Shown piece after piece: positions 6,687 through 40,276 of a DNA stretch of 64,000 nucleotides (position 1 is its first letter; each line of letters opens with the position of its first letter). The stretch covers positions 224,001 to 288,000 of the forward strand of contig JBMNLI010000017.1 of NCBI GenBank assembly GCA_050952645.1. The letters are read 5' to 3'. The notes under the pieces were generated by a model, which saw nothing but the letters and a program-made list of their open reading frames with translations, made no database searches and was not told the origin of the DNA. The position numbers and the translations under genes were made by a program. The DNA comes from Bdellovibrionota bacterium. Lineage in GTDB: Bacteria; Bdellovibrionota_C; UBA2361; CAKMMH01.

Positions 6687-6879
6687 GTTCTTCACGTTTT
6701 AAGTGGGGTAGGAAAAAAATTGTTTCTTTAATTAGCTTAAAAGAAAATTGGCTTTGATAGAAAACTAGCTATAAATTAAAAAAAAATGACAACTATATTA
6801 AAAGTCAATTTTCTTTTGGCCCCCGTGGTGAGTGATACTAATCTTTTAGAGTTTAAAATCACTTTGAAACGTGAGGAAC
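6687..6879 (+). mobile_element. MITE-like repeat, subtype A (a second partial terminus follows at 6887-6925)
   Basis: Ends gttcttcacgtttt / ttgaaacgtgaggaac; interior homologous to copies at 9820, 10112, 21047 and 40009. Confidence 0.8.
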
Positions 6880-6944: not shown

Positions 6945-8366
6945 CTACCTTAAATCTTTTGCAATATTTTCTAGTAGTGGCGGTCTTAATAAAATATTTC
7001 TTGCTTCTAACGCCTGCGCGGCAAGAGATGGGAACACTCCTTCAAGTCTAGATATTTGATTTAAATGATCGGCGGTTTGAGAAATAAGTCTTGAAGCATC
7101 CCCTTCAGCTACTCCTGCAAGCCTAAGTATCGATGCAAACGATGACCAATCTTGCGAATCCATCCAAGTAGTTACAGTAATAGCAGCAGACGGCTGCACT
7201 ACTACCTCATCTCTATTCTTATTTTCATACGCTAATTTTACGTACTCTACAATTCTCGTCATCTCATCAAAATACTGTTTCTTTATAAGATTCTTTTTAA
7301 TATTTATATACGACCTATAAGAATCTCCAGCAATGCTAGCTACAAGCCCGACTAGTTCATAAGCATCTAAATCTTCAAAAAGTCCACTATCGATAGCCTC
7401 AGCGAGTTCTAAAACCAAACTCGTGCAAAGTTCTGCCGCCCAATGTCCTTTAGGAGTTAATTTTTTATCTTTTATATGTCCTAAACTTTCTAGAACTCTA
7501 ACCGTATTTTCTAATTGTAAAGATTGCCTATTTTTTAGGAGTTCCACTTCTCTTTGTCTTCTATTTATCTTCTTTCTAAATTTTTTAGCAACTTCAGTTT
7601 GAAGTGTATCTTTCTTTTCTTCATACTCTCTTTGTAATTCCTTTAGCTCCTCTTGAAGTTTGCTAGCTTCTTTTCTATCTAGAAAACCAGCAAAACTTTT
7701 TTCTACTAAAAATCTTAAATCTTCAACGGAACGAAATTTTAATAGATTAAGAACCGTTGATGGTGCTGCAAAATAAGCAGACCTTAAAGGCTCTACGGGT
7801 TTTTTTATAATATCACTTACCACTCTTGCATCTGAAAAAAGCCCTGGCGCTACTAAACAAATTCCCACCGAATCTTTTCCACGTCTTCCAGCTCGACCAG
7901 ACATTTGCTGAAACTCAGACGAGGTTAAAATTTTAAATCCATCTGCCCCTCTTTTGCTATGAGCAGTAATCACAGTCGTTCTTGCAGGAAAATCTACCCC
8001 TGCTGCCACAGTGCCAGTTGCTATCATAAGCCTAAGAACTCCTCTTACCATAAGTTCTTCTAAGAGCAATCTCCAAAGCAAAAGTTGCCCAGCGTGATGC
8101 GCCCCAGCCCCAGTTTTTATTAGTGCTTCATATTGAAGATGCCCAAAGATAACCTCTCTTTCCATGGAATATTTTTCAACAATCTTTTCAACCTCTGCTT
8201 TCAGCACTTCTTGTTCGTCTAGCGGAAGTTCAGCGCTAGGTCTTATTGAAAGTTTTTCTATATCATCATCACACTGTCTTCTCGATGTTCTAAATAATAA
8301 TGCTGGAAGTAAATTGTCTTTTTTTAATTGCATCAACATTGTATATACTGGATATTCACTTATCAT
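6945..8366 (-). CDS. Ski2/HelY-like helicase, C-terminal half (RecA2 domain plus C-terminal helical region)
   Basis: LLPALLF..SRRQCD, AHHAG, ATGTVAAGVDFPA, QMSGRAGRRG (motif VI); own AAGGTG RBS. Confidence 0.9.
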   Translation of the reverse strand: MISEYPVYTMLMQLKKDNLLPALLFRTSRRQCDDDIEKLSIRPSAELPLDEQEVLKAEVEKIVEKYSMEREVIFGHLQYEALIKTGAGAHHAGQLLLWRLLLEELMVRGVLRLMIATGTVAAGVDFPARTTVITAHSKRGADGFKILTSSEFQQMSGRAGRRGKDSVGICLVAPGLFSDARVVSDIIKKPVEPLRSAYFAAPSTVLNLLKFRSVEDLRFLVEKSFAGFLDRKEASKLQEELKELQREYEEKKDTLQTEVAKKFRKKINRRQREVELLKNRQSLQLENTVRVLESLGHIKDKKLTPKGHWAAELCTSLVLELAEAIDSGLFEDLDAYELVGLVASIAGDSYRSYINIKKNLIKKQYFDEMTRIVEYVKLAYENKNRDEVVVQPSAAITVTTWMDSQDWSSFASILRLAGVAEGDASRLISQTADHLNQISRLEGVFPSLAAQALEARNILLRPPLLENIAKDLR

Positions 8367-8525
8367 TTTACTAATTTCACCTTTTTTTATATTGCTATTA
8401 TATTACTTTATATATTACTTTAATTTATTTTTTAATTTATTCTCTACATTTTAAGATAGTTAAAACTATCTAACACATACATTTTCCCATATGCATAAAG
8501 CGTTAAAAACCCTAAAAGTTTACCT

Positions 8526-9544
8526 TTAGCGTCCTTTTATACGGCTCTTTCTCTGTTTTCCGCTTTGCGTTCCTTTTCCTTTAAAATTACTTTTAGTTCT
8601 TCTAGATGTTTTTCCTTTTCTTCGCCACCCCTCATCTCCTTTATAAGCCTTTCTAAATGAGATTCTCGTAAACTTCATTCCACTAGAATCAAGTCCTGCC
8701 TTGCCATAATAATCTAAAACATCCTTACAAACATTTCCCTTTTTATCATTTAAAGGTATAGGGCCAAAATCAGGATGTAAAAACCCATATCTTAACTCTA
8801 CAGGTCTATCATACTTATAAACTACATTACACTCTTTGCCTCTAACCTCTTTTAACCAAGCGGCTATCTCATCTGCATTTGAAATCGATGCAGAAAGCAT
8901 TAAAAGCGCCGCTTCTTTTGCACTCAAAATTATACTCTCTTCCCAAACGGCACCTCTTTGAGGGTCTGCAATATAATGAACTTCATCAAAAACTACTAAA
9001 GAATATCTTTCTTCGACTTTATATAACTCATTTCTATAAATTTCAGTCGTTGCGATTAAAATATTTGCATCAGTATCTATTTTTCTATCGCCAGTTAAAA
9101 TACCTACTTTAAATTTAGGCTCAAATATTTTTTAAACTCATTATATTTAGTATTAGAAAGTGCCTTTAAAGGCGTCGTGTAAATAGAACGCCCTCCTTGT
9201 TCGGCATTAGCTTTTATCGCCTCTAGAGCGATAAAAGTTTTTCCTGCTCCCGTCGGGGCTACTACGAGCGTATCATTTCCAAGGACTACGGATTCTATGG
9301 CTTCTTTTTGAAAATCATCTATAACAAATTCCGTATTTTCAGGAACTCCTATACCAGATAAAAACTCTTTTTTCTCTTTACTTATCCTTACCCCTCTACT
9401 ATCACCACCATTACTATTGCTACTTCTCTTCTCGATACTGTTCTTATTGCCGTTCTTATTACCATTCTTATTATTGTCATTATTCTTTTCCTTATTATTA
9501 TCCTTATTCCTATTATTTTTTTTATTATTATTTTTATAACTCAT
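8526..9544 (-). CDS. Ski2/HelY-like helicase, N-terminal half (RecA1 domain); one frameshift near 9131
   Basis: APTGAGKT and TPLKALSN; adding one A to the A6 run gives KVGILTGD...ATTEIYRN...VVFDEVHY...RGAVWEE, in frame with ORF 8526-8927 (LSAS, RPVEL). Confidence 0.88.
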
Positions 9545-9732
9545 ATAAAATTTCCTTAAATCTTTTTTAAAAACTAACCTTTCTTTTAATTTATTTTATT
9601 TAAAATTTATTTTTTAAAACTTTAAAGCTCTTAATATTTTAATCTAATCTTAATTTAGAGAGCAAAAATTCTCTTTAGTATTTACACAACCGCTCTTTAA
9701 ATCCTTTAAAAAAATATCACCTTTAGACATAC

Positions 9733-10169
9733 CTTAAAACGTCAAAGAACCTAAAAATTAGCTCTTCACGTTTTAAGTGGGTTAAAGTCTATCTTCTAAT
9801 AAATTGACAAAACTATTTTGTTCTTCACTTTTAAAGGTGATTTAAGACCTTAAAATTAGTATCACTCACCTCACGAAGCCCAAAAGAAAATTGACTTTAA
9901 AGGAATTGGCATAAAATAAATTAACTTTAAATATAGCTGTAATTTTTTTTTTGAAACTATAGTTAGTTTTATATAAAAGTCAATTTTCTTTTAAGCTAAC
10001 CTAAAAAACAATTTTTCTAACCCACTTAAAACGTCAAAGAACCTAAAAATTAGCTCTTCACATTTTAAGTGGGTTAAAGTCTATCTTCTAATAAATTGAC
10101 AAAACTATTTTGTTCTTCACTTTTAAAGGTGATTTAAGACCTTAAAATTAGTATCACTCACCCCACGAA
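9733..10169. repeat. 292-bp tandem unit (subtype B left end plus subtype A MITE); second unit is interrupted by the intron and resumes at 12067-12240
   Basis: cttaaaacgtcaaagaacctaaaaatt recurs at 9733, 10025 and 12214; the units are nearly identical. Confidence 0.92.
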
Positions 10170-12066
10170 ATAGGGTAGAGCGAGGGCTATACCCTCTCCC
10201 TCCCGTCGCACCGTACGTACGGGTCTCGTATACGGCGCTCCATTAATATAATATCAAGTAATACTCAGGTAATACGTCAAAGGGTCGATTAAACCAATTC
10301 GTTCCTTTGTTTTACGCCCCAATATTTTAGGGCTTAATGCATAATTCACTACGTACCACGAACTGCGTCTATACCAGCCGAGTCTGCTGTTAGCAACCTT
10401 ATAGATTTCTTCATTTCTAAAATTGCAACCAAGCATTCGGTTCAATTTCTTAAGATTTAGATAGATTCGTCTCGGCAATTTCCACTGTTTAAGTATTATA
10501 ACCCTCACTTTGTGTCTAAGCCATTGACCATATTTATCTATAAAAGTCTTAAGAGTTCCTATCTTATAATAGTTTATCCAACCTTTAATTAACCAGCTTA
10601 GCTGTTGAAATGTCGAACCTAACGTTCGTGCCATTGCCTTCCGTCTACAAAGAATTTCTCTAGTTTTATCATAGAGTTTTCGTTTGCGATCTTCAGCAGG
10701 TTTACATTTCCAAGTTTTATACCCACTCTTCCAGTAGGTAAAGCCTAAGAAAGTGCTTTCCGTCGGCCTAGAGATTTTACTCTTACTTGAATTAATTTTA
10801 AGTCGTAGCTTACGCTCCAACCAACTCGCAACGGACTTCATTACTCTATTAGCAGCCTTTTCACTTCTAACAAATATATTACAGTCATCGGCATATCTAA
10901 CAAACTTAAGTCCTCTTGCTTCCAGTTCCTTGTCGAGTCTTATCAAGGTATATGTTAGATAATACTGGGGATAATGGACCTCCTTGCGGAACTCCTTTCT
11001 CACTTACAGTAAACAATCCATCTTCCATTATACCAGCTCTTAAGAACTGTCTTATCAATCGTAGTGTCTTCGCATCTTTGATGCGTTCCCTGATTATCGA
11101 AATTAATTTGTCGTGATTAACAGTATCAAAATATTTCTCTATGTCTAGGTCTATAACCCAATCATAGCCTCTTTTCAAGTACTCAAGAGTTCTATATACT
11201 GCTAGATGGCAATTCCTTCTAGGTCTAAAGCCATAGCTACTATTACTAAAATACTTTTCGTATCCGCGTGCTAGTATTTGCGCTACCGCTTGTTGAATTA
11301 CCCTATCTACTACTGTAGGTATTCCTAAAGGTCTCATCTTACCATTAGCTTTAGGTATATACACTCTCTTAACTGGACTCGGCTTATAATTCCCTTCACG
11401 TATCTGAGATTTTATCTCTTCTCTGTGAACGGCAAAATAGTCTTCAAGCTCATCTACTGGCATATCATCTACACCAGATGCACCTTTATTTCGCTTAAAC
11501 AGCCTTTATAGCCTCATCTATATTTTTGTCTGATATAATTAGTTCAATCAATTCCACCTGTTGCTCCTCCCTCTGTTTGTAAAGCTACTAGAAAACACCC
11601 CCTCTATCTTCTGCCCCCACAGGTTACGTTCCTGTTTGTTAGGCATATCCTTCAATTTCGGACTCTTCTAGCCTTGCTTACAGTGATTCACAATATATTA
11701 ACGTTCAACCCTTCCTTGAGTGGTGTCTCAAGTACTATGGTATCAACTGACTTCCAGATATAAGCTTTATATCGCACGTGCATAGCACGCTATCTGGACC
11801 TCCCGGGGTAAGGCATAGTTCTTTCACCAGACAACCTCCAGATTTACTCGTTTGGTTTTACGTTTGTCTTTAGGGCTTCGGTTTGTAGCGCAACCTCACC
11901 CACCATTTAGCCTTGTATCTGGTTTCTGTTCGTAGGCTCCTTGGTTTTGATCCGCCACTTCCTTCACTCTAACATTACTGCTTCGAGCTTGTGGCATCAC
12001 TACACTTGGTGACAACTACCCGTGACGGGACTTTCACCCGCTAGAACTATGTCGTGCCCGGCACAC
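10170..12066 (-). mobile_element. Group II intron, class IIC, about 1897 nt
   Basis: 5' end GTGTGCCGGGC at 12066; short domain V GAGCGCCGTATACGAGACCCGTACGTACGGTG with CGC triad; domain VI ending in AT at 10170; flanks rejoin as cacgaa|gcccaaaag, matching the empty copy near 9877. Confidence 0.95.
10254..11557 (-). CDS. ltrA: Intron-encoded reverse transcriptase/maturase without endonuclease domain; +1 frameshifts near 11498 and 10938
   Basis: GTG start at 11557 after GGAGGAG; RPLGIPTVVDR, SYGFRP, DLDIEKYFD, GVPQGGPLSP, RYADD, GWINYY. Confidence 0.93.
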
Positions 12067-12239
12067 GCCCAAAAGAAAATTGACTTTAAAGGAATTTGCA
12101 TAAAATAAATTAACTTTAAATATAGCTGTAATTTTTTTTTTGAAACTATAGTTAGTTTTATATAAAAGTCAATTTTCTTTTAAGCTAACCTAAAAAAACA
12201 ATTTTCTAACCCACTTAAAACGTCAAAGAACCTAAAAAT

Positions 12240-12959
12240 TTAAATATTATATCTACAAGATATAAAATATCTTAACTCTTTATTACTAATATTTTTTATG
12301 TTTTCTTTTTTATCATCATAAATAAGCACACCATCATTTAAAGCTAATAGATGACTAACAACTGGAAAAAGTCGCCTTAAATCGTGGCTTACTATAATCA
12401 TCGTTAAGTTATATTCTTTTTGTAAATTAGATATTAACTCCATAATTACTGCGCTAGCTACTGGGTCTAGCCCACTAGTAGGGTCATCTAACAAAACTAC
12501 GCTTGGGGTAGACACTAGCGCTCTTGCTAGAGATACTCTTTTTCGCATACCACCGCTAAGCTGTCCTGGCATTTTTAAATAACTATCTTTAAGCCCTACC
12601 TTATCTAGTATATCAAATATTTTGTAAGTATAATTTTTTCTTTTTTCATCACTTAAAAGCGATAAAGAGTTTCCTCTAGTAAGTGGAAAAAGAACATTAT
12701 CAAAAACGTTCATCGAATCGAAAAGTGCTCCTTCTTGAAACATAAGTGAAACGTCGCTTTTATTTTTTATACCAAGGTCGAAAGTGCCACTATCTTGCTC
12801 ATATATTCCTGCAAGAACTTTTAGCAAAACGCTCTTTCCAGAAGCGGTAGGGCCTATTAACCCTGTAATTGTGCTAGCTTTTAAACTAAATGAAACATCT
12901 TTTAGGGCTTCAACATTGCTAAATGATTTCGTTATATTATTAACTTCTATATTTTTCAT
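12240..12959 (-). CDS. ABC transporter ATP-binding protein (MlaF/Ttg2A-like)
   Basis: GPTASGKS, FQEGALFDSM, LSGGMRKRVSLARA, DDPTSGLDP, VSHD. Confidence 0.88.
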   Translation of the reverse strand: MKNIEVNNITKSFSNVEALKDVSFSLKASTITGLIGPTASGKSVLLKVLAGIYEQDSGTFDLGIKNKSDVSLMFQEGALFDSMNVFDNVLFPLTRGNSLSLLSDEKRKNYTYKIFDILDKVGLKDSYLKMPGQLSGGMRKRVSLARALVSTPSVVLLDDPTSGLDPVASAVIMELISNLQKEYNLTMIIVSHDLRRLFPVVSHLLALNDGVLIYDDKKENIKNISNKELRYFISCRYNI

Positions 12960-15001: not shown

Positions 15002-15084
15002 AGTCGATTTTCTAGTTCTTCACGTTTAAAGGGGATTAGAAAAATTGTTTTTTTAAGGCTAGTTTAAAATCTCTTAAAAAAAAT

Positions 15085-15350
15085 GGCTCTTCACGTTTTG
15101 AGTAGGTTAGAGTCTATCTTCTAATGTAAATTGACAAAATTATTTTATGAAACTGTTGTTGTTTTATTAAAATAATAGTTAATTTTATTGGGAAAAATAA
15201 ACATTAGAGTTGTTAGAAAAAGTTATCCATAACTGATAGCAAGACCTAGTAATTAAAAGCTAAAGGTCAGGCTGTGGATAACTTTCACAAAGACCCCATT
15301 AAATAGAATGGCGTTTTGTCTCTCTTAACCCACCTAAAACATGAAGAACC
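15085..15350 (+). mobile_element. MITE-like repeat, subtype B (partial subtype A end at about 15015-15070)
   Basis: Ends ggctcttcacgttttgagtaggtt / aacccacctaaaacatgaagaacc; interior matches 35545-35785. Confidence 0.82.
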
Positions 15351-21046: not shown

Positions 21047-21271
21047 GGCTCTTCACGTTTTATGTGGGTTAAAAACCTTTAAAATTAGTATCACTCACCT
21101 CGACGAAGCCCAAAAGAAAATTGACTTTAAAGAAATTTGCATAAAATAAATTACTTTAAATATAGTTGTAATTTTTCTTTAAACTATAGATAGTTTTCTA
21201 TAAAAGCCAATTTTCTTTTAAGCTAACCCCCAATAACAATTTTTTCTAACCCACCTAAAACGTGAAGAACC
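21047..21271 (-). mobile_element. MITE-like repeat, subtype A, both termini intact
   Basis: ggctcttcacgttttatgtgggtta / taacccacctaaaacgtgaagaacc; contains an unoccupied acgaa|gcccaaaag intron site. Confidence 0.88.
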
Positions 21272-21302: not shown

Positions 21303-22129
21303 TTACGCTATTTCTCTAATTCTTAAAAGCCTATCTATTAAGCTTGGAAATTCCTTAAGTGGCACCATATTAGGCCCATCACTTTTAGCTTTTTCTGGCT
21401 CTGGGTGAGTCTCAAAAAACAGCCCATCGCAACCTATCGCCATTGCACATCTTGCTAGAGGCTCTACTAAGCTTCTATCCCCACCTGAAGCATTTCCTAG
21501 GGCGCTCGGTTCTTGCACGCTATGCGTCGCATCGAAAATTACTGGTGCTCCAAAAGATTGCATCTTAACTACTCCCTTAAAATCGTTTACTAAGCGTCCA
21601 TAACCAAAAAAAGTTCCTCTCTCACAAATCATCACATTTTTATTCCCCGTACTATTAACCTTTTTTATAACATTTATCATATCCGTAGGTTGCATAAATT
21701 GCCCTTTCTTAATGTTTAAAGGCTTATTAGTTTTTCCTGCAGCTAAAAGCAGATCCGTTTGTCTAGCTAAAATGCTGGAATCTGAAGCACATCACAAACA
21801 TTGGCCACAATTTGAGCTTGATAGCTTTCATGAATATCTGTAATTACGGGAAGCCCCGTTTCTTTTTTAACCTTTAATAGAGCGTTTAACCCCTCTTCGA
21901 TACCTATACCACGAAAAGAATCTATGCTAGTTCTATTAGCCTTATCGAACGAGGCTTTAAATATAACATTTATATTACGAGTTTCTTTTAAATTACTTAA
22001 AACATCGGCAATTTTTAGCAAGATTTCTTCGCTCTCTATAACGCAAGGACCCGCAATCAATAATAAAGGCATGCCCTTTCCAACTTTAAAATTTGCTATA
22101 TTAACTATATTATTAGTATTTAATTCCAT
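21303..22129 (-). CDS. kdsA: KDO 8-phosphate synthase; frameshift near 21770
   Basis: [18 protein letters not shown]; adding one T gives [13 protein letters not shown]...[26 protein letters not shown]. Confidence 0.95.
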
Positions 22130-22228
22130 TTTTTCACATCCTTTTAAAAATATTATCATCAATATAATATATAAAGGGTAAAATAAATAGTGAAAGTTAT
22201 TTATAATTTTTTTTAAAGGAGACTTAAA

Positions 22229-24876: not shown

Positions 24877-26737
24877 CCTTAACTTTGCAAAAAAGTTCAC
24901 CTAAAATTTTTTTTGTAATTTTTTATTTATTTGAGCAGCTTTTAATCTTACCTTATCAGCATCTATATCAAACGCATTTAATATAGTTTTTTGTCTTTTG
25001 CTTACTGCATAGCTCAGCTGATATAAATCCTTACTCCCTCTTACCATTTCAATTTTTTCAAGTTCTTTTAATGCGGCAGGAACATTCATATAGTTTGGCT
25101 TTTTTGTTAGCTTAGAAAGTTCTTCATTAAGTAGAATATAAATGCGATTGCGAATTATAAGTGCTATAAACTCTATAAAAATTTTAGCAGATACTGCCTG
25201 AGATGAATGAACTCTCATACTTTTTGAGCCTAAAAAAGTCTTATCAATAGCAAAAAGTTTCTCAGTTGCGTCTCTACCCTTGTAAAGTATTATAGCTTCT
25301 TTAGCACTCATTTCTTCCGAACTAACAAGACAAAAATACCCACATAAATTAAGAGCCTTTTGAATTTCATCTGCTCTCTCTTCTACTTTTCTTAACTTTC
25401 CTTGATTGTCATAACTTAAATCAAAAAATTGCTTATACGTTTGTCCAAACTTTGTATCTTTGCCAATATGGTTTTTTAAAAATTGTTCAAACTCCTCTAA
25501 TTTAATTTCTAGTTGCTCCCTCTCAAATGCTTGCTTTTCCGCACTAAAATAAACATGAAAATAACGCTCCTTACTATCATCATCATATAATTTTGATTTC
25601 ACTGTAGTGCCATATACCTTGTATAAGCGAATACTACAGTCTCTTTTAGACTCAAATGTATTCCTGTTTTCTTCTACTAATTTAGAAACTAAAGCCTTAC
25701 ACCCTTTTACCATCAATAAAAAAGAAAAACCACTATTATCCATATATTGAATATTATATTTACTAAAATAACCACGGTCTAAAATAAATCCTATCTTTTT
25801 ATATCCATACTCTATAACCTTATCTGCCATATGAGTAAATTGAGAAACGTCTGTAATAGAACCAGGATACTCTTCGTAAAATAACGGAACTCTATTCGTT
25901 TGATCAAAGGCAATGGATAAATTAAATACTGGGAATCCTTTTTCGTCTTTCGCTTTACCAAACTCTACTAATTCAACATCACCTGCTTGACAGTTCTTAT
26001 TAGTCGAATCATATGAAACGTAAACCATTTGATTGCGATCTTTTCCCTTGTTCCAATCGTCAAGAAAGTTAATTATCTGCTCTTTGCTAACAGAAGAAAG
26101 AAAACGACTTATGGTAGAATCACTATAGATGCGCATACCTTTTGTAAAGAGTGGATGAGAAAAGGCGTAGTCTGGATAATACTGACTGACATTCTCTTCA
26201 TTTACAATAAAATAACTCGCTAAATCAAGTATAAGTTCACTACGTTCACCAAAATGTTTTTTTTAGTAAAAAAGGCAAATTAAATTCATTTGCTACTTTT
26301 TCAATCACCAAGTGGGGGACCTATACGAAGACAACAACTGCGTGAAGCGTCTGAAAATTTCTCGGGCATAGGGGCATCTGGAAAATAATTACTATAATTG
26401 TCATTAGGGTACATAATATCATCTCTACCATCAACTAATTTTCCAATAACGCTACGCTTTGGATTAGTATACTGTTTCTCTTTATTATAAGTGCGATCGT
26501 ATTCAAAAAGCACATATTTTGCTTCCCCTTTTTCTCTTATAATTATTTTATTTCTTTGCTCTGGTAATGGAACTGTTCGATTGTAATTCATAAAACCTCC
26601 TTTAGGTTAACGGTTGCACTAAAAGTATAGCATAGTAAATACACAGATGCAAGTAAAAAAAATGCATAATTTAACGATTATTTCTTATTTATTTTAATTG
26701 ATTATTTGTTTAGGTGAACTTTTTTGAAAAGTTAAGG
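24877..26737 (-). mobile_element. Insertion sequence, IS1634-like, 1861 bp
   Basis: 29-bp TIRs ccttaactttgcaaaaaagttcacctaaa / tttaggtgaacttttttgaaaagttaagg (1 mismatch); 6-bp direct repeat aagtaa at 24871-24876 and 26738-26743. Confidence 0.95.
24901..26591 (-). CDS. DDE transposase (IS1634/IS4-like); +1 frameshifts near 26316 and 26260
   Basis: YDSTN, FILDRGY, YKGRDATEKLF; removing one base from each homopolymer joins ORFs 26301-26591 and 24901-26136. Confidence 0.9.
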
Positions 26738-29314
26738 AAGTAAAAGTAGCATTATCATCTAGATTAGGACATTGGTCGTAAGGGTCTAAAACTTCATCTC
26801 CATCGTGATCGTTTATATCGCAATAATTTTCAGTAAGAGTTTTACATCTATAAACTCCCTTTCCTATAACATCATAAGTAATGCCACCGATTACTATTTC
26901 GCCAGTTTTTTCCGAACACTCTTCCCCTATAAAAAAATCTTCATCGATACGACCATCGTAATCATTATCTAAACCATCACAAAGTTCAGGCTGTGGCTCA
27001 GGCGTATACGTTGCCGTGTTAGTAGGTGTATTAGTCGGCGTGTTAGTAGGTGTATTTGTTGGCACCGTCGGCGTATTTGTAGGAGTATTTGTAAAAGTAT
27101 GCGTGAATGTAGGAGTAAAGGTAGGCGTAAAGGTAGGCGTTGATGCGGCGCTAGATGAACTACTATGAAAAGAAGTAGTGCTACTACTGCTACTACTAGG
27201 AGTACCATTTGGTGAAGAACTACTATGAAAAGAAGTAGTGCTACTACTGCTACTACTAGGAGTACCATTTGGTGAAGAACTACTATGAAAAGAAGTAGTG
27301 CTACTACTGCTACTACTAGGAGTACCATTTGGTGAAGAACTACTATGAAAAGAAGTAGTGCTACTACTGCTACTACTAGGAGTACCATTTGGTGAAGAAC
27401 TACTAGATTGCACATTACCTTGCGAGCTAGCACTACTACCACCTCCAAAAATAATTATACCGTCTCCATCCATATCTCCAAACCCTAAACCTTTCATCAT
27501 GCGTTTACCGTCTGAAGAAAAATCTTCATCTATTTTTCCATCACAATCATTATCTAAGCCATCATAAATTTCTAAGGTTTTCGCATCCATATTCGCTTGT
27601 GCATCACACAAAACAGGACTATCAGATATTAAACCAGCACAATAATATTTTCCATTTTCAAGGCATACTCCAAGTCCAGCAGAGCAACTTAAATTTATAG
27701 AAGAATACAAACTATCTTTACAACAAGCAGGCGTATTTGCACTACAAACTATCAGAGGCTCTTCTGTGTCTCCATTGTAGCAAGTTAGCACTCCCTCTCC
27801 TAAACATTGATTAGCTAAACCATTATCGCACTCTTTACCTAAGTTTGCATAATTCCAATGCGTAGAACAATTAGTAGGAAACATTAGAGCTTCCCCTCCT
27901 AAGAATATCTGAGTAGGCGTTTGTCTAGAAACTTTAGTGCCATCTCCAATTTGTGCTAAAGTATTATTTCCAGTGCTGTAAAGTTTTCCAACCACATTTA
28001 TTATATATAAATTATTGCTAACATTTATAATACGTTTTACATCACTAAAAATAAATTCAGGTGTTTTTTGATTAATAGTAGTATTATTCCCAATTTGTCC
28101 AAAATCATTTTTTCCAAAACAGTAAAGATTATTATCACTCGCAACTACGCAAGTAGAATTGCTAGCAAGCGACATACTATAAACACCGTCTAGGACTTTA
28201 TAAAACGGACTAGAAACGCTATCCCCTTTTCCTATTTGTCCGTAATTATTAGCGCCACTACAATAAAGCTTATTCTCGTTAGTTATAGCGCAAATATGGT
28301 ACTCTCCTATTGAAACTTGTTTTATATCATCTAAAACTTTTAATGGTGCTGAAACTTTGCTATCTTCTTTTGCGTCGATCGGCTTATAAGTAGCATTATT
28401 ATTTCCCCAACAATAAAGCGTTCCGTCTACTTTTATAGCACAAGTATTAAGGCTAGTTATACTAACATTGCGGACATTTTCAAGCACTTTCTTAGGAGTA
28501 TTCACGGAAGCGCTTAAAGTTCCGCTACCTACCTGACCAAAGCTATTTCCTCCCCAACAAAAAAGATCTCCATTAGTTTTAATAGCACAAGCGTGCGCAA
28601 CTGAAGAATTTTGCAAAGACACATAACTTACATCATCTAAAATTTTAATTGGAGATACCACTCGAGAACTAAAAGTGCCATTTCCTACATTTCCAACTTC
28701 ATTATAGCCCCAGCAATATAGCGCTCCTAAAGTAGTTATAGCACATGTAGTCCACCCTCCTACTGCCACTTGGCTTATATTAAGCTTAGGAAGTATCAAC
28801 TTAGGTGTAGTCTCGTAGGTAGTATCCCCCGAGCCTAATTGACCATAATCATTTTTTCCAAAACAATAAAGCTTGCTATCTGAAATAGCACAAGTATGAT
28901 CATAGCCTACACTAACGGCACTTACATTTGTAAGCCCCACAATTTTTTTAGGAGTCGATACGTGATAATCTTTAGATGTTATTTGACCATGTTCATTTAA
29001 CCCCAGCAGTAAAGTTCTCCACTTACAGAAATAGCGCAAGTAGTGCTCCCATTACTTGCTACCTGCTTTACGCTATCTAATATAACGCTATCTAATATAG
29101 GGGCTGATGCAAAACAAGGACTATTAGAAAATATTATGATAAATAAAAAGATAAATAAAAATAAGAAAAAATTAGAAAGAAAACTAGAGAATCTTTTTAT
29201 AGTTTCTAATGGTTTTCTACTATATATTTCCTTACTATATATCTCGTTATATACCTTATCATATATAGAGGGAAAAAAATTCAATAAGTTATGTTCTTTT
29301 ATGATAAAATTCAT
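26738..29314 (-). pseudogene. 5' part of a large secreted or surface protein gene (RCC1-like repeats, Cys/Asp-rich motifs, Ser- and Thr/Pro-rich linkers); frameshift near 29002 and IS disruption
   Basis: Hydrophobic N-terminal segment; repeated HTCAI...LYCWGxNxxGQ; two DGLDNDxDGxIDEDF motifs. Confidence 0.88.
27157..27405 (-). repeat. Exact 60-bp coding tandem repeat, about 4 copies (SSSSPNGTPSSSSSSTTSFH)
   Basis: Lines starting 27181, 27241 and 27301 are identical; 27361 matches for 45 bp. Confidence 0.97.
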
Positions 29315-40008: not shown

Positions 40009-40232
40009 GGTTCTTCACGTTTTAGGTGGGTTAGGAAAATTGTTTTTGGGGGTTAGCTTAAAAGAAAATTGGCTTTTATAGAAAACTATCTATAGTTTAA
40101 AGAAAAATTACAACTATACTTAAAGTATTTTATATTTAGCAAAATTTTTTTAAAGACAATTTTCTTTTTGAGTTCCGTGAGATGAATGATGATAATTTTA
40201 AGAACTTAAAATCTTCTAAAAATATGAAAAAC
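40009..40232 (+). mobile_element. MITE-like repeat, subtype A, right end degenerate
   Basis: Starts ggttcttcacgttttaggtgggtta; first ~120 bp are nearly the reverse complement of the right part of the 21047-21271 copy. Confidence 0.82.
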
Positions 40233-40276
40233 TAAAATATCATAACGAGTATAGAAATTATAGCCTTAAAACTTTA

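Follow-up and report, generated by a model that had tools for sequence, protein, structure and literature searches.

A group IIC intron found mostly at the base of an ISL3-type MITE stem in a Bdellovibrionota genome

A 64,000-nucleotide stretch of a Bdellovibrionota genome (hereafter the window) contains a group II intron that splits one copy of a MITE, close to the hairpin inside the repeat, while an adjoining tandem copy is empty. This arrangement raises the question of whether the intron seeks the MITE as such, travels within it as cargo, or finds in it the kind of stem that class IIC introns generally enter. Earlier reports have placed IIC introns behind terminators, behind other inverted repeats and at attC sites (PMC1702495, PMC4424553, PMC7923331, PMC8643678, PMC7306698), one of these sources describing the targets as 'terminator motifs or other inverted repeats' (PMC1702495). 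The data presented here favour the third possibility. It is likely that a recently multiplied IIC intron, with nine of its ten copies at the base of an ISL3-type MITE stem, reached these positions through the ordinary IIC rule, the MITE supplying most of the fitting sites.

The intron and the MITE that hosts it

The window intron is 1897 bp long, ends in GTGTG...CCCTAT and lies on the minus strand. The position given in the first-pass annotation, 10170-12066 between cacgaa (10164-10169) and gcccaaaag (from 12067), was confirmed, and the features of the locus are listed in Table 1. Rfam matches on the minus strand comprise group-II-D1D4-3 (RF02001, 11813-11984) and Intron_gpII (RF00029, 10170-10240), and the GUGYG...AY ends, together with a CGC catalytic triad read from the Rfam alignment, identify a group II ribozyme. 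The intron-encoded protein (IEP) displays only the Pfam domains RVT_1 and GIIM, with no endonuclease domain, and its top PDB matches are the E. rectale intron protein (7UIM) and GsI-IIC. The 442-residue frame is unbroken in five genomic copies. The window copy contains three extra bases (10938, 11497 and 11649), two of them in the ORF, that are absent from all four sequencing runs compared, and the two frameshifts in its reading frame are therefore assembly errors. Elsewhere in the window the helicase (6945-9544) and KDO8P synthase (21303-22162) genes are split into several ORFs, probably by assembly indel errors.

Table 1. Features of the intron, the tandem MITE units and the dispersed empty copy (window coordinates)
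Feature	Position	Strand	Basis or detail
Lone remnant of MITE right TIR	9733..9751		
8-bp repeat TAAAAATT, likely target-site duplication (TSD)	9752..9759, also 10044-10051 and 12233-12240	+	
Tandem unit 1, empty MITE copy	9760..10043		Junction 9877/9878
Tandem unit 2, split by the intron	10052..12232		Doubled left end (outer TIR 10052, inner 10111); right TIR ending 12232
Group IIC intron (10 copies in the genome)	10170..12066	-	Rfam, genome blastn; ends defined by comparing 10 distinct flanks
Domains V-VI with CGC catalytic triad	10170..10240	-	Rfam alignment
Intron-encoded RT/maturase without endonuclease	10254..11557	-	Start codon approximate; 442-aa frame in intact copies
EBS1, GCUA	11886..11889	-	Covariation with IBS1 in 45 related introns
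IBS1, GGGC on intron strand	12067..12070	-	Flank comparison and covariation; IBS3 = T at 10169
MITE internal stem	12071..12181		Branched loop of 77 nt closed by 17-bp arms (12071-12087, 12165-12181)
Dispersed empty MITE copy, 225 bp	21047..21271		Junction 21107/21108

Exon recognition by the intron is typical of class IIC, comprising a short EBS1-IBS1 pairing (3-4 bp) and IBS3. In 45 related introns the EBS1 loop forms on average 3.2 of four Watson-Crick pairs with IBS1, compared with 1.58 after shuffling; none of 5,000 shuffles reached 3.2, and the covariation signal was lost when the compared segment was shifted. The set of 45 was derived from 80 genome loci, 53 of which had a readable 5' end, by dropping gap-filled or duplicate flanks. 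Among the loci dropped were seven of the eight from Mogibacterium pumilum that share a flank (all eight were dropped from the flank survey described below) and L085, a duplicate of L084. In the Mogibacterium pumilum record one flank, bounded by N runs, is common to all eight loci (L026-L031, L033 and L051), and it probably reflects gap filling. The ribozyme domains, the endonuclease-less IEP, the short EBS1-IBS1 pairing and the DNA stem 5' of the insertion site (see below) all support the original assignment to class IIC. Its IIC relatives are 62-77% identical and mostly from Bacillota, and the closest relatives of the IEP, at 74-77% identity, are also from Bacillota. The IEP was matched in 13 of 90 order-level relatives, never above 52% and never within the family. 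This distribution suggests horizontal arrival of the intron from Bacillota.

The repeat is an ISL3-family MITE, sharing its TIRs with an element that encodes an ISL3 transposase and generating an 8-bp TSD. The TIR motif matches the genome 291 times, as opposed to 20 times after shuffling, and its genomic matches form 78 left-right pairs. One pair encloses an 1860-bp ISL3 element (C10:339480-341339; DDE_Tnp_ISL3, E = 1.3e-50) flanked by a perfect 8-bp duplication, whose TIRs match those of the MITE over 22-25 bp. The 8-bp TSD is also perfect in the window, and direct repeats of at least 8 bp with at most one mismatch flank 36 of the 69 elements of up to 300 bp, a hand count in A+T-rich flanks with no chance baseline. 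The intron is hosted by subtype A, which has a core of ~222 bp (44 cores in the genome, eight of them occupied) and shares only the TIRs with the ISL3 element, displaying no internal homology. Further length subtypes, of ~104 bp and ~270 bp, occur genome-wide, and the ~270-bp subtype carries 220 bp of the right end of the ISL3 element. Within the window the same TIR family is also found at ~6687-6879, ~15078-15146, ~35542 and 40009-40239. The sole ISL3 transposase in the assembly is single-copy and is frameshifted in an A run near its start, through an assembly error, a programmed shift or a real lesion. MITE DNA was not found in the 30 relatives searched, nor was the TIR pattern in three family-level relatives. 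IS1595 was rejected as the partner of the MITE, PF12762 having no match in the genome assembly (94% complete).

The perfect 17-bp inverted repeat that had been described as ending 4 nt short of the splice site was confirmed. With two mismatches it reaches 22 bp and spans the insertion site; compared with 200 shuffles, z = -3.7. There is no terminator-like site at 9700-12400. A candidate MITE-borne promoter, TTGACT-16-TATAGT (12172-12145), was discarded, as 10 sites were found compared with 8.4 +/- 2.9 by chance, and most copies read TTGGCT.

Insertion sites and the supply of stems

Blastn identified ten near-identical copies of the intron in the genome, and the nine that are uninterrupted differ by at most three substitutions. 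This similarity suggests recent multiplication and mobility. Nine of the ten copies are located in one MITE family, which makes up 1.43% of the genome, at either arm of the internal stem. Five are directly after TTTTCTTTTGGGC/T (junction GGGC/T), three come after the mirror-image arm, TTTTCTTTTAAGC/T, on the opposite strand (AAGC/T), and one is in a 98-bp tandem array derived from the MITE (AGGC/T). The tenth copy (C15:58210) lies outside the MITE, after a short hairpin of ordinary type, and has a perfect IBS1 (TAGC/A). IBS3 is T at nine of the ten sites, a helix is predicted at -5..-14 at all ten, and the stem spans 108-111 nt at eight. Since the stem is palindromic and both of its arms end in RRGC/T, each MITE offers one site per strand.

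These data bear on several expectations of the first-pass annotation. The view that the intron enters just after a DNA stem is upheld at every site, and the MITE is indeed the main target in this genome; the opposing scenario, in which other copies lie mostly after ordinary terminators, is not borne out, one copy in ten lying after an ordinary hairpin. The prediction that the flanks of the copies would be subtype A MITEs split at the same nucleotide is correct with respect to the host in most cases, but the introns occupy a pair of mirror-image sites, on opposite strands, rather than one. The dispersed junction placed at ~21106 is uninterrupted, but reads gacgaa/gcccaaaag, one base different.

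Several copies display additional rearrangements. At C7:31331-33500 the right end of the MITE is gone just past the intron and a TTTCTTTTATTA-type microsatellite is in its place. At C10:108195-112600 the MITE interior consists of the hairpin unit in a 98-bp tandem array, and the intron lies in one of the units. This intron copy (C10:108630) is itself interrupted by an IS1634-family element, resulting in three-level nesting (IS within intron within MITE array), and the same junction is present in run X3. The IS1634-family element has nine near-identical copies, including those at 24880-26744 of the window and C10:108915-110777. Intron flanks in runs X2 and X3 match sites already present in the assembled genome, and thus add no independent insertions. 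Contig depths, which are not copy numbers, differ between samples, hinting at different intron copy numbers. Eight of the ten introns are on the G-rich strand, which also carries 743 of 1,066 long ORFs (one-sided binomial 0.055), and one of the exceptions is ~10 kb from a skew switch; the strand bias is only suggestive.

The rule followed by related introns provides an external standard for judging these sites. At 86 distinct sites a helix at -5..-14 is present in 82 and a T tract (at least three T at -5..-8) in 80, the relatives inserting after terminator hairpins of ~30 nt with a T tract. Stem spans exceeding 70 nt occur in five of the 86, compared with eight of ten in this genome. Relative to all IBS-compatible sites, the MITE is strongly enriched (p = 5e-16). 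It is also over-occupied among intergenic sites with a predicted helix when no T tract is required (p = 0.008-0.055), and when IBS3 = T is the only condition (p = 0.012-0.051). Once the T tract, a condition taken from the relatives and hence external to this genome, is included, the MITE provides between 101 of 137 and 98 of 114 intergenic candidates with hairpin, T tract and RGC (about 75-85%), and nine of ten insertions in the MITE are therefore expected. Occupancy of 9:1 or 9:0 then does not differ from availability (p = 0.36-1), and a dedicated preference for the MITE, as originally envisaged, is not sustained, although the site rule was tuned on the same ten insertions and this number confers little power. 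Availability is thus sufficient to explain the location of nine of the ten copies, and ten insertions are compatible with a modest preference as well.

Retargeting, cargo transposition and the tandem array

Availability depends on EBS1, and the fit of this element to the MITE is unusual. GCU- ranks first of the 64 possible EBS1s by the number of MITE sites (99) and second by their share (85%). By contrast, the nine commonest EBS1s of the relatives would give a MITE share of 0-20%, and the EBS1s of two relatives in 100 would reach 70%; GCU- was absent from all 100 relatives examined. The rare fit reflects either ascertainment or retargeting, in which EBS1 mutated to GCUA after arrival and was selected for fitting both arms of the MITE, giving rise to a MITE-specialised lineage. 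EBS1 differs even between near-identical IIC introns (L011/L012; L013/L103/L014), which suggests that target specificity drifts faster than the RT and speaks for retargeting. The same hypervariability (43 EBS1 types among the 100 relatives, some regex calls possibly being off by one) also tells against retargeting, and the case was selected for sitting in MITEs. Full adaptation is disfavoured by the observation that the three most frequent IBS1s mismatch EBS1 at position 4, while the non-MITE site, TAGC, matches it perfectly. Nor was a close donor found, the best relative being 77% identical and the intron's 5' end having no exact match in metagenome or viral contigs. We therefore consider it unlikely that a horizontally acquired IIC intron was retargeted away from terminators, by a change in its 4-nt EBS1, and towards the pair of mirror-image sites in the ISL3 MITE. 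If this did occur, retargeting would constitute a third class of IIC target beside terminators and attC sites, and the range of a retroelement would have been set by the earlier spread of a DNA transposon.

The first-pass annotation also proposed that the 2.1-kb composite of MITE and intron might be transposed as cargo, in which case the ISL3 transposase would move it as a unit. Such transposition is physically possible, as both TIRs are kept in eight of the nine MITE-embedded copies (C7:31508 lacks the right end), and the composite is close in size to the 1860-bp ISL3 element with the same TIRs. It has left no trace, however. No two occupied MITEs match, these differing by 6-29 substitutions whereas the introns differ by at most three, and the insertions are therefore independent and the cargo proposal unsupported. 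On a tree of the 44 subtype-A cores the eight occupied cores require eight gains and are not clustered, 500 of 500 shuffled labelings being as low. Moreover, two opposite insertion points are in use, and the frameshift near the start of the single-copy ISL3 transposase, the reality of which is uncertain, also counts against mobilization of the composite, which we regard as highly improbable. An ~800-bp duplicated segment, 97.4% identical between C6:23218 and C12:89290, contains the same MITE in occupied form on C6 and empty on C12. The related idea of a renewable, proliferating target is likewise not supported, as every dispersed subtype-A copy differs from all the others (median divergence from the nearest copy 3.6%, the closest pair differing at 1 position in 179); the divergence of these copies suggests that the MITE spread before the intron did.

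At the locus itself the order is a lone right end, TAAAAATT, unit 1, TAAAAATT, unit 2 with the intron, and TAAAAATT. The 292-bp unit is a variant of the MITE in which the left end is doubled and the 8-bp duplication is included, and the junction reported 292 bp from the occupied one is, as stated, uninterrupted. The two units differ by three substitutions and two homopolymer indels and are each other's nearest neighbours on the tree. The right-end/TSD/left-end junction occurs exactly in a 132-nt contig of run X2 and in two 61-nt contigs of run X1 (possibly the source sample), and X2 also contains unit-2 sequence running into the empty junction. As contigs from two other runs contain the junction, the tandem probably exists, and the data fit a tandem that predates the intron insertion, although contigs this short, drawn from a repeat, do not prove the arrangement at this locus. 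That the tandem is instead an assembly artefact joining occupied and empty alleles, a concern that bears on the local arrangement only, has very little probability: the assembly is error-prone (the helicase and kdsA genes are frameshifted) and no contig of the runs compared spans the whole stretch, but the units differ in sequence, the X2 and X1 contigs cross the junction exactly, and tandem MITE arrays are also present on C9, C10, C12 and C7.

Mechanism and comparison with known systems

In the preferred account, insertion by the ordinary IIC rule, the intron would have come in from Bacillota. Single-stranded MITE DNA, probably on the lagging-strand template, would fold into a branched stem of ~110 nt; the maturase would grip the basal 8-13 bp, the terminal TTTT fraying into a spacer. 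EBS1 would then pair with RRGC, the intron RNA would reverse-splice, and the nascent lagging strand would prime cDNA synthesis. The E. rectale structure contains a stem of 12 bp and a short spacer together with IBS1 and IBS3, and IIC proteins are stated to use lagging strands (PMC10190682). The tandem would be older, probably the product of recombination at the 27-bp right-end/TSD repeat, with the intron subsequently entering one unit. The counts show that most landing sites of a hairpin-seeking retroelement can be supplied by a MITE burst, one mobile element thereby setting the genomic range of another. The system also provides a natural setting in which to test IIC target rules, namely whether only the basal stem matters.

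An endonuclease-less intron nested in insertion sequences and using lagging-strand priming is exemplified by RmInt1 of Sinorhizobium meliloti. RmInt1, however, is a IIB intron that homes in a sequence-specific manner to an autonomous IS, without structure-based recognition of a MITE. The literature searched, which included few subscription papers and no supplements, yielded no account of a IIC intron within a MITE; PMC4853749 describes the converse case, in which a MITE lies within a group I intron. The host repeat resembles the ISL3 MITE of Microcystis aeruginosa, which, in the available text, has a TIR start of GGCTCTTC, 8-bp direct repeats, a cognate ISL3 transposase and a stem-loop (PMC11448079); that text mentions no intron inside the MITE.

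A parallel in target choice exists with IIC-attC introns such as S.ma.I2, which also target a dispersed family of long imperfect DNA hairpins belonging to a different mobile system, the site lying at the stem or inside it (PMC7923331). The two differ in that IIC-attC introns recognize TTGT/T on the bottom strand, whereas the sites in this genome are RRGC/T, on either strand of a transposon-derived repeat, or TAGC/A, and the nearest RT relatives of the intron among those compared are, by their flanks, of the terminator type. With the terminator-type introns (B.h.I1, E. rectale 7UIM and GsI-IIC 6AR1) the intron shares an endonuclease-less RT/maturase, a 4-nt EBS1, an IBS3 of T, the CGC triad and insertion after a stem and T spacer. 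It differs from them in its EBS1, GCUA, and in its targets: eight of ten are the base of a 108-111-nt branched stem in a mobile repeat, on both strands, rather than a ~30-nt terminator, and a short hairpin outside the MITE, the nearest approach to a short-loop intrinsic terminator, is used once in ten. The stem opens into an ~80-nt branched loop, unlike the short capped loop of the solved IIC structure. Two features thus stay unusual, the ~110-nt branched stem used from both strands and an EBS1 that is the best of 64 for the MITE. Nevertheless, there is good support for regarding this as a standard IIC intron that inserts by the known IIC mechanism and whose target, though unusual, can be explained.
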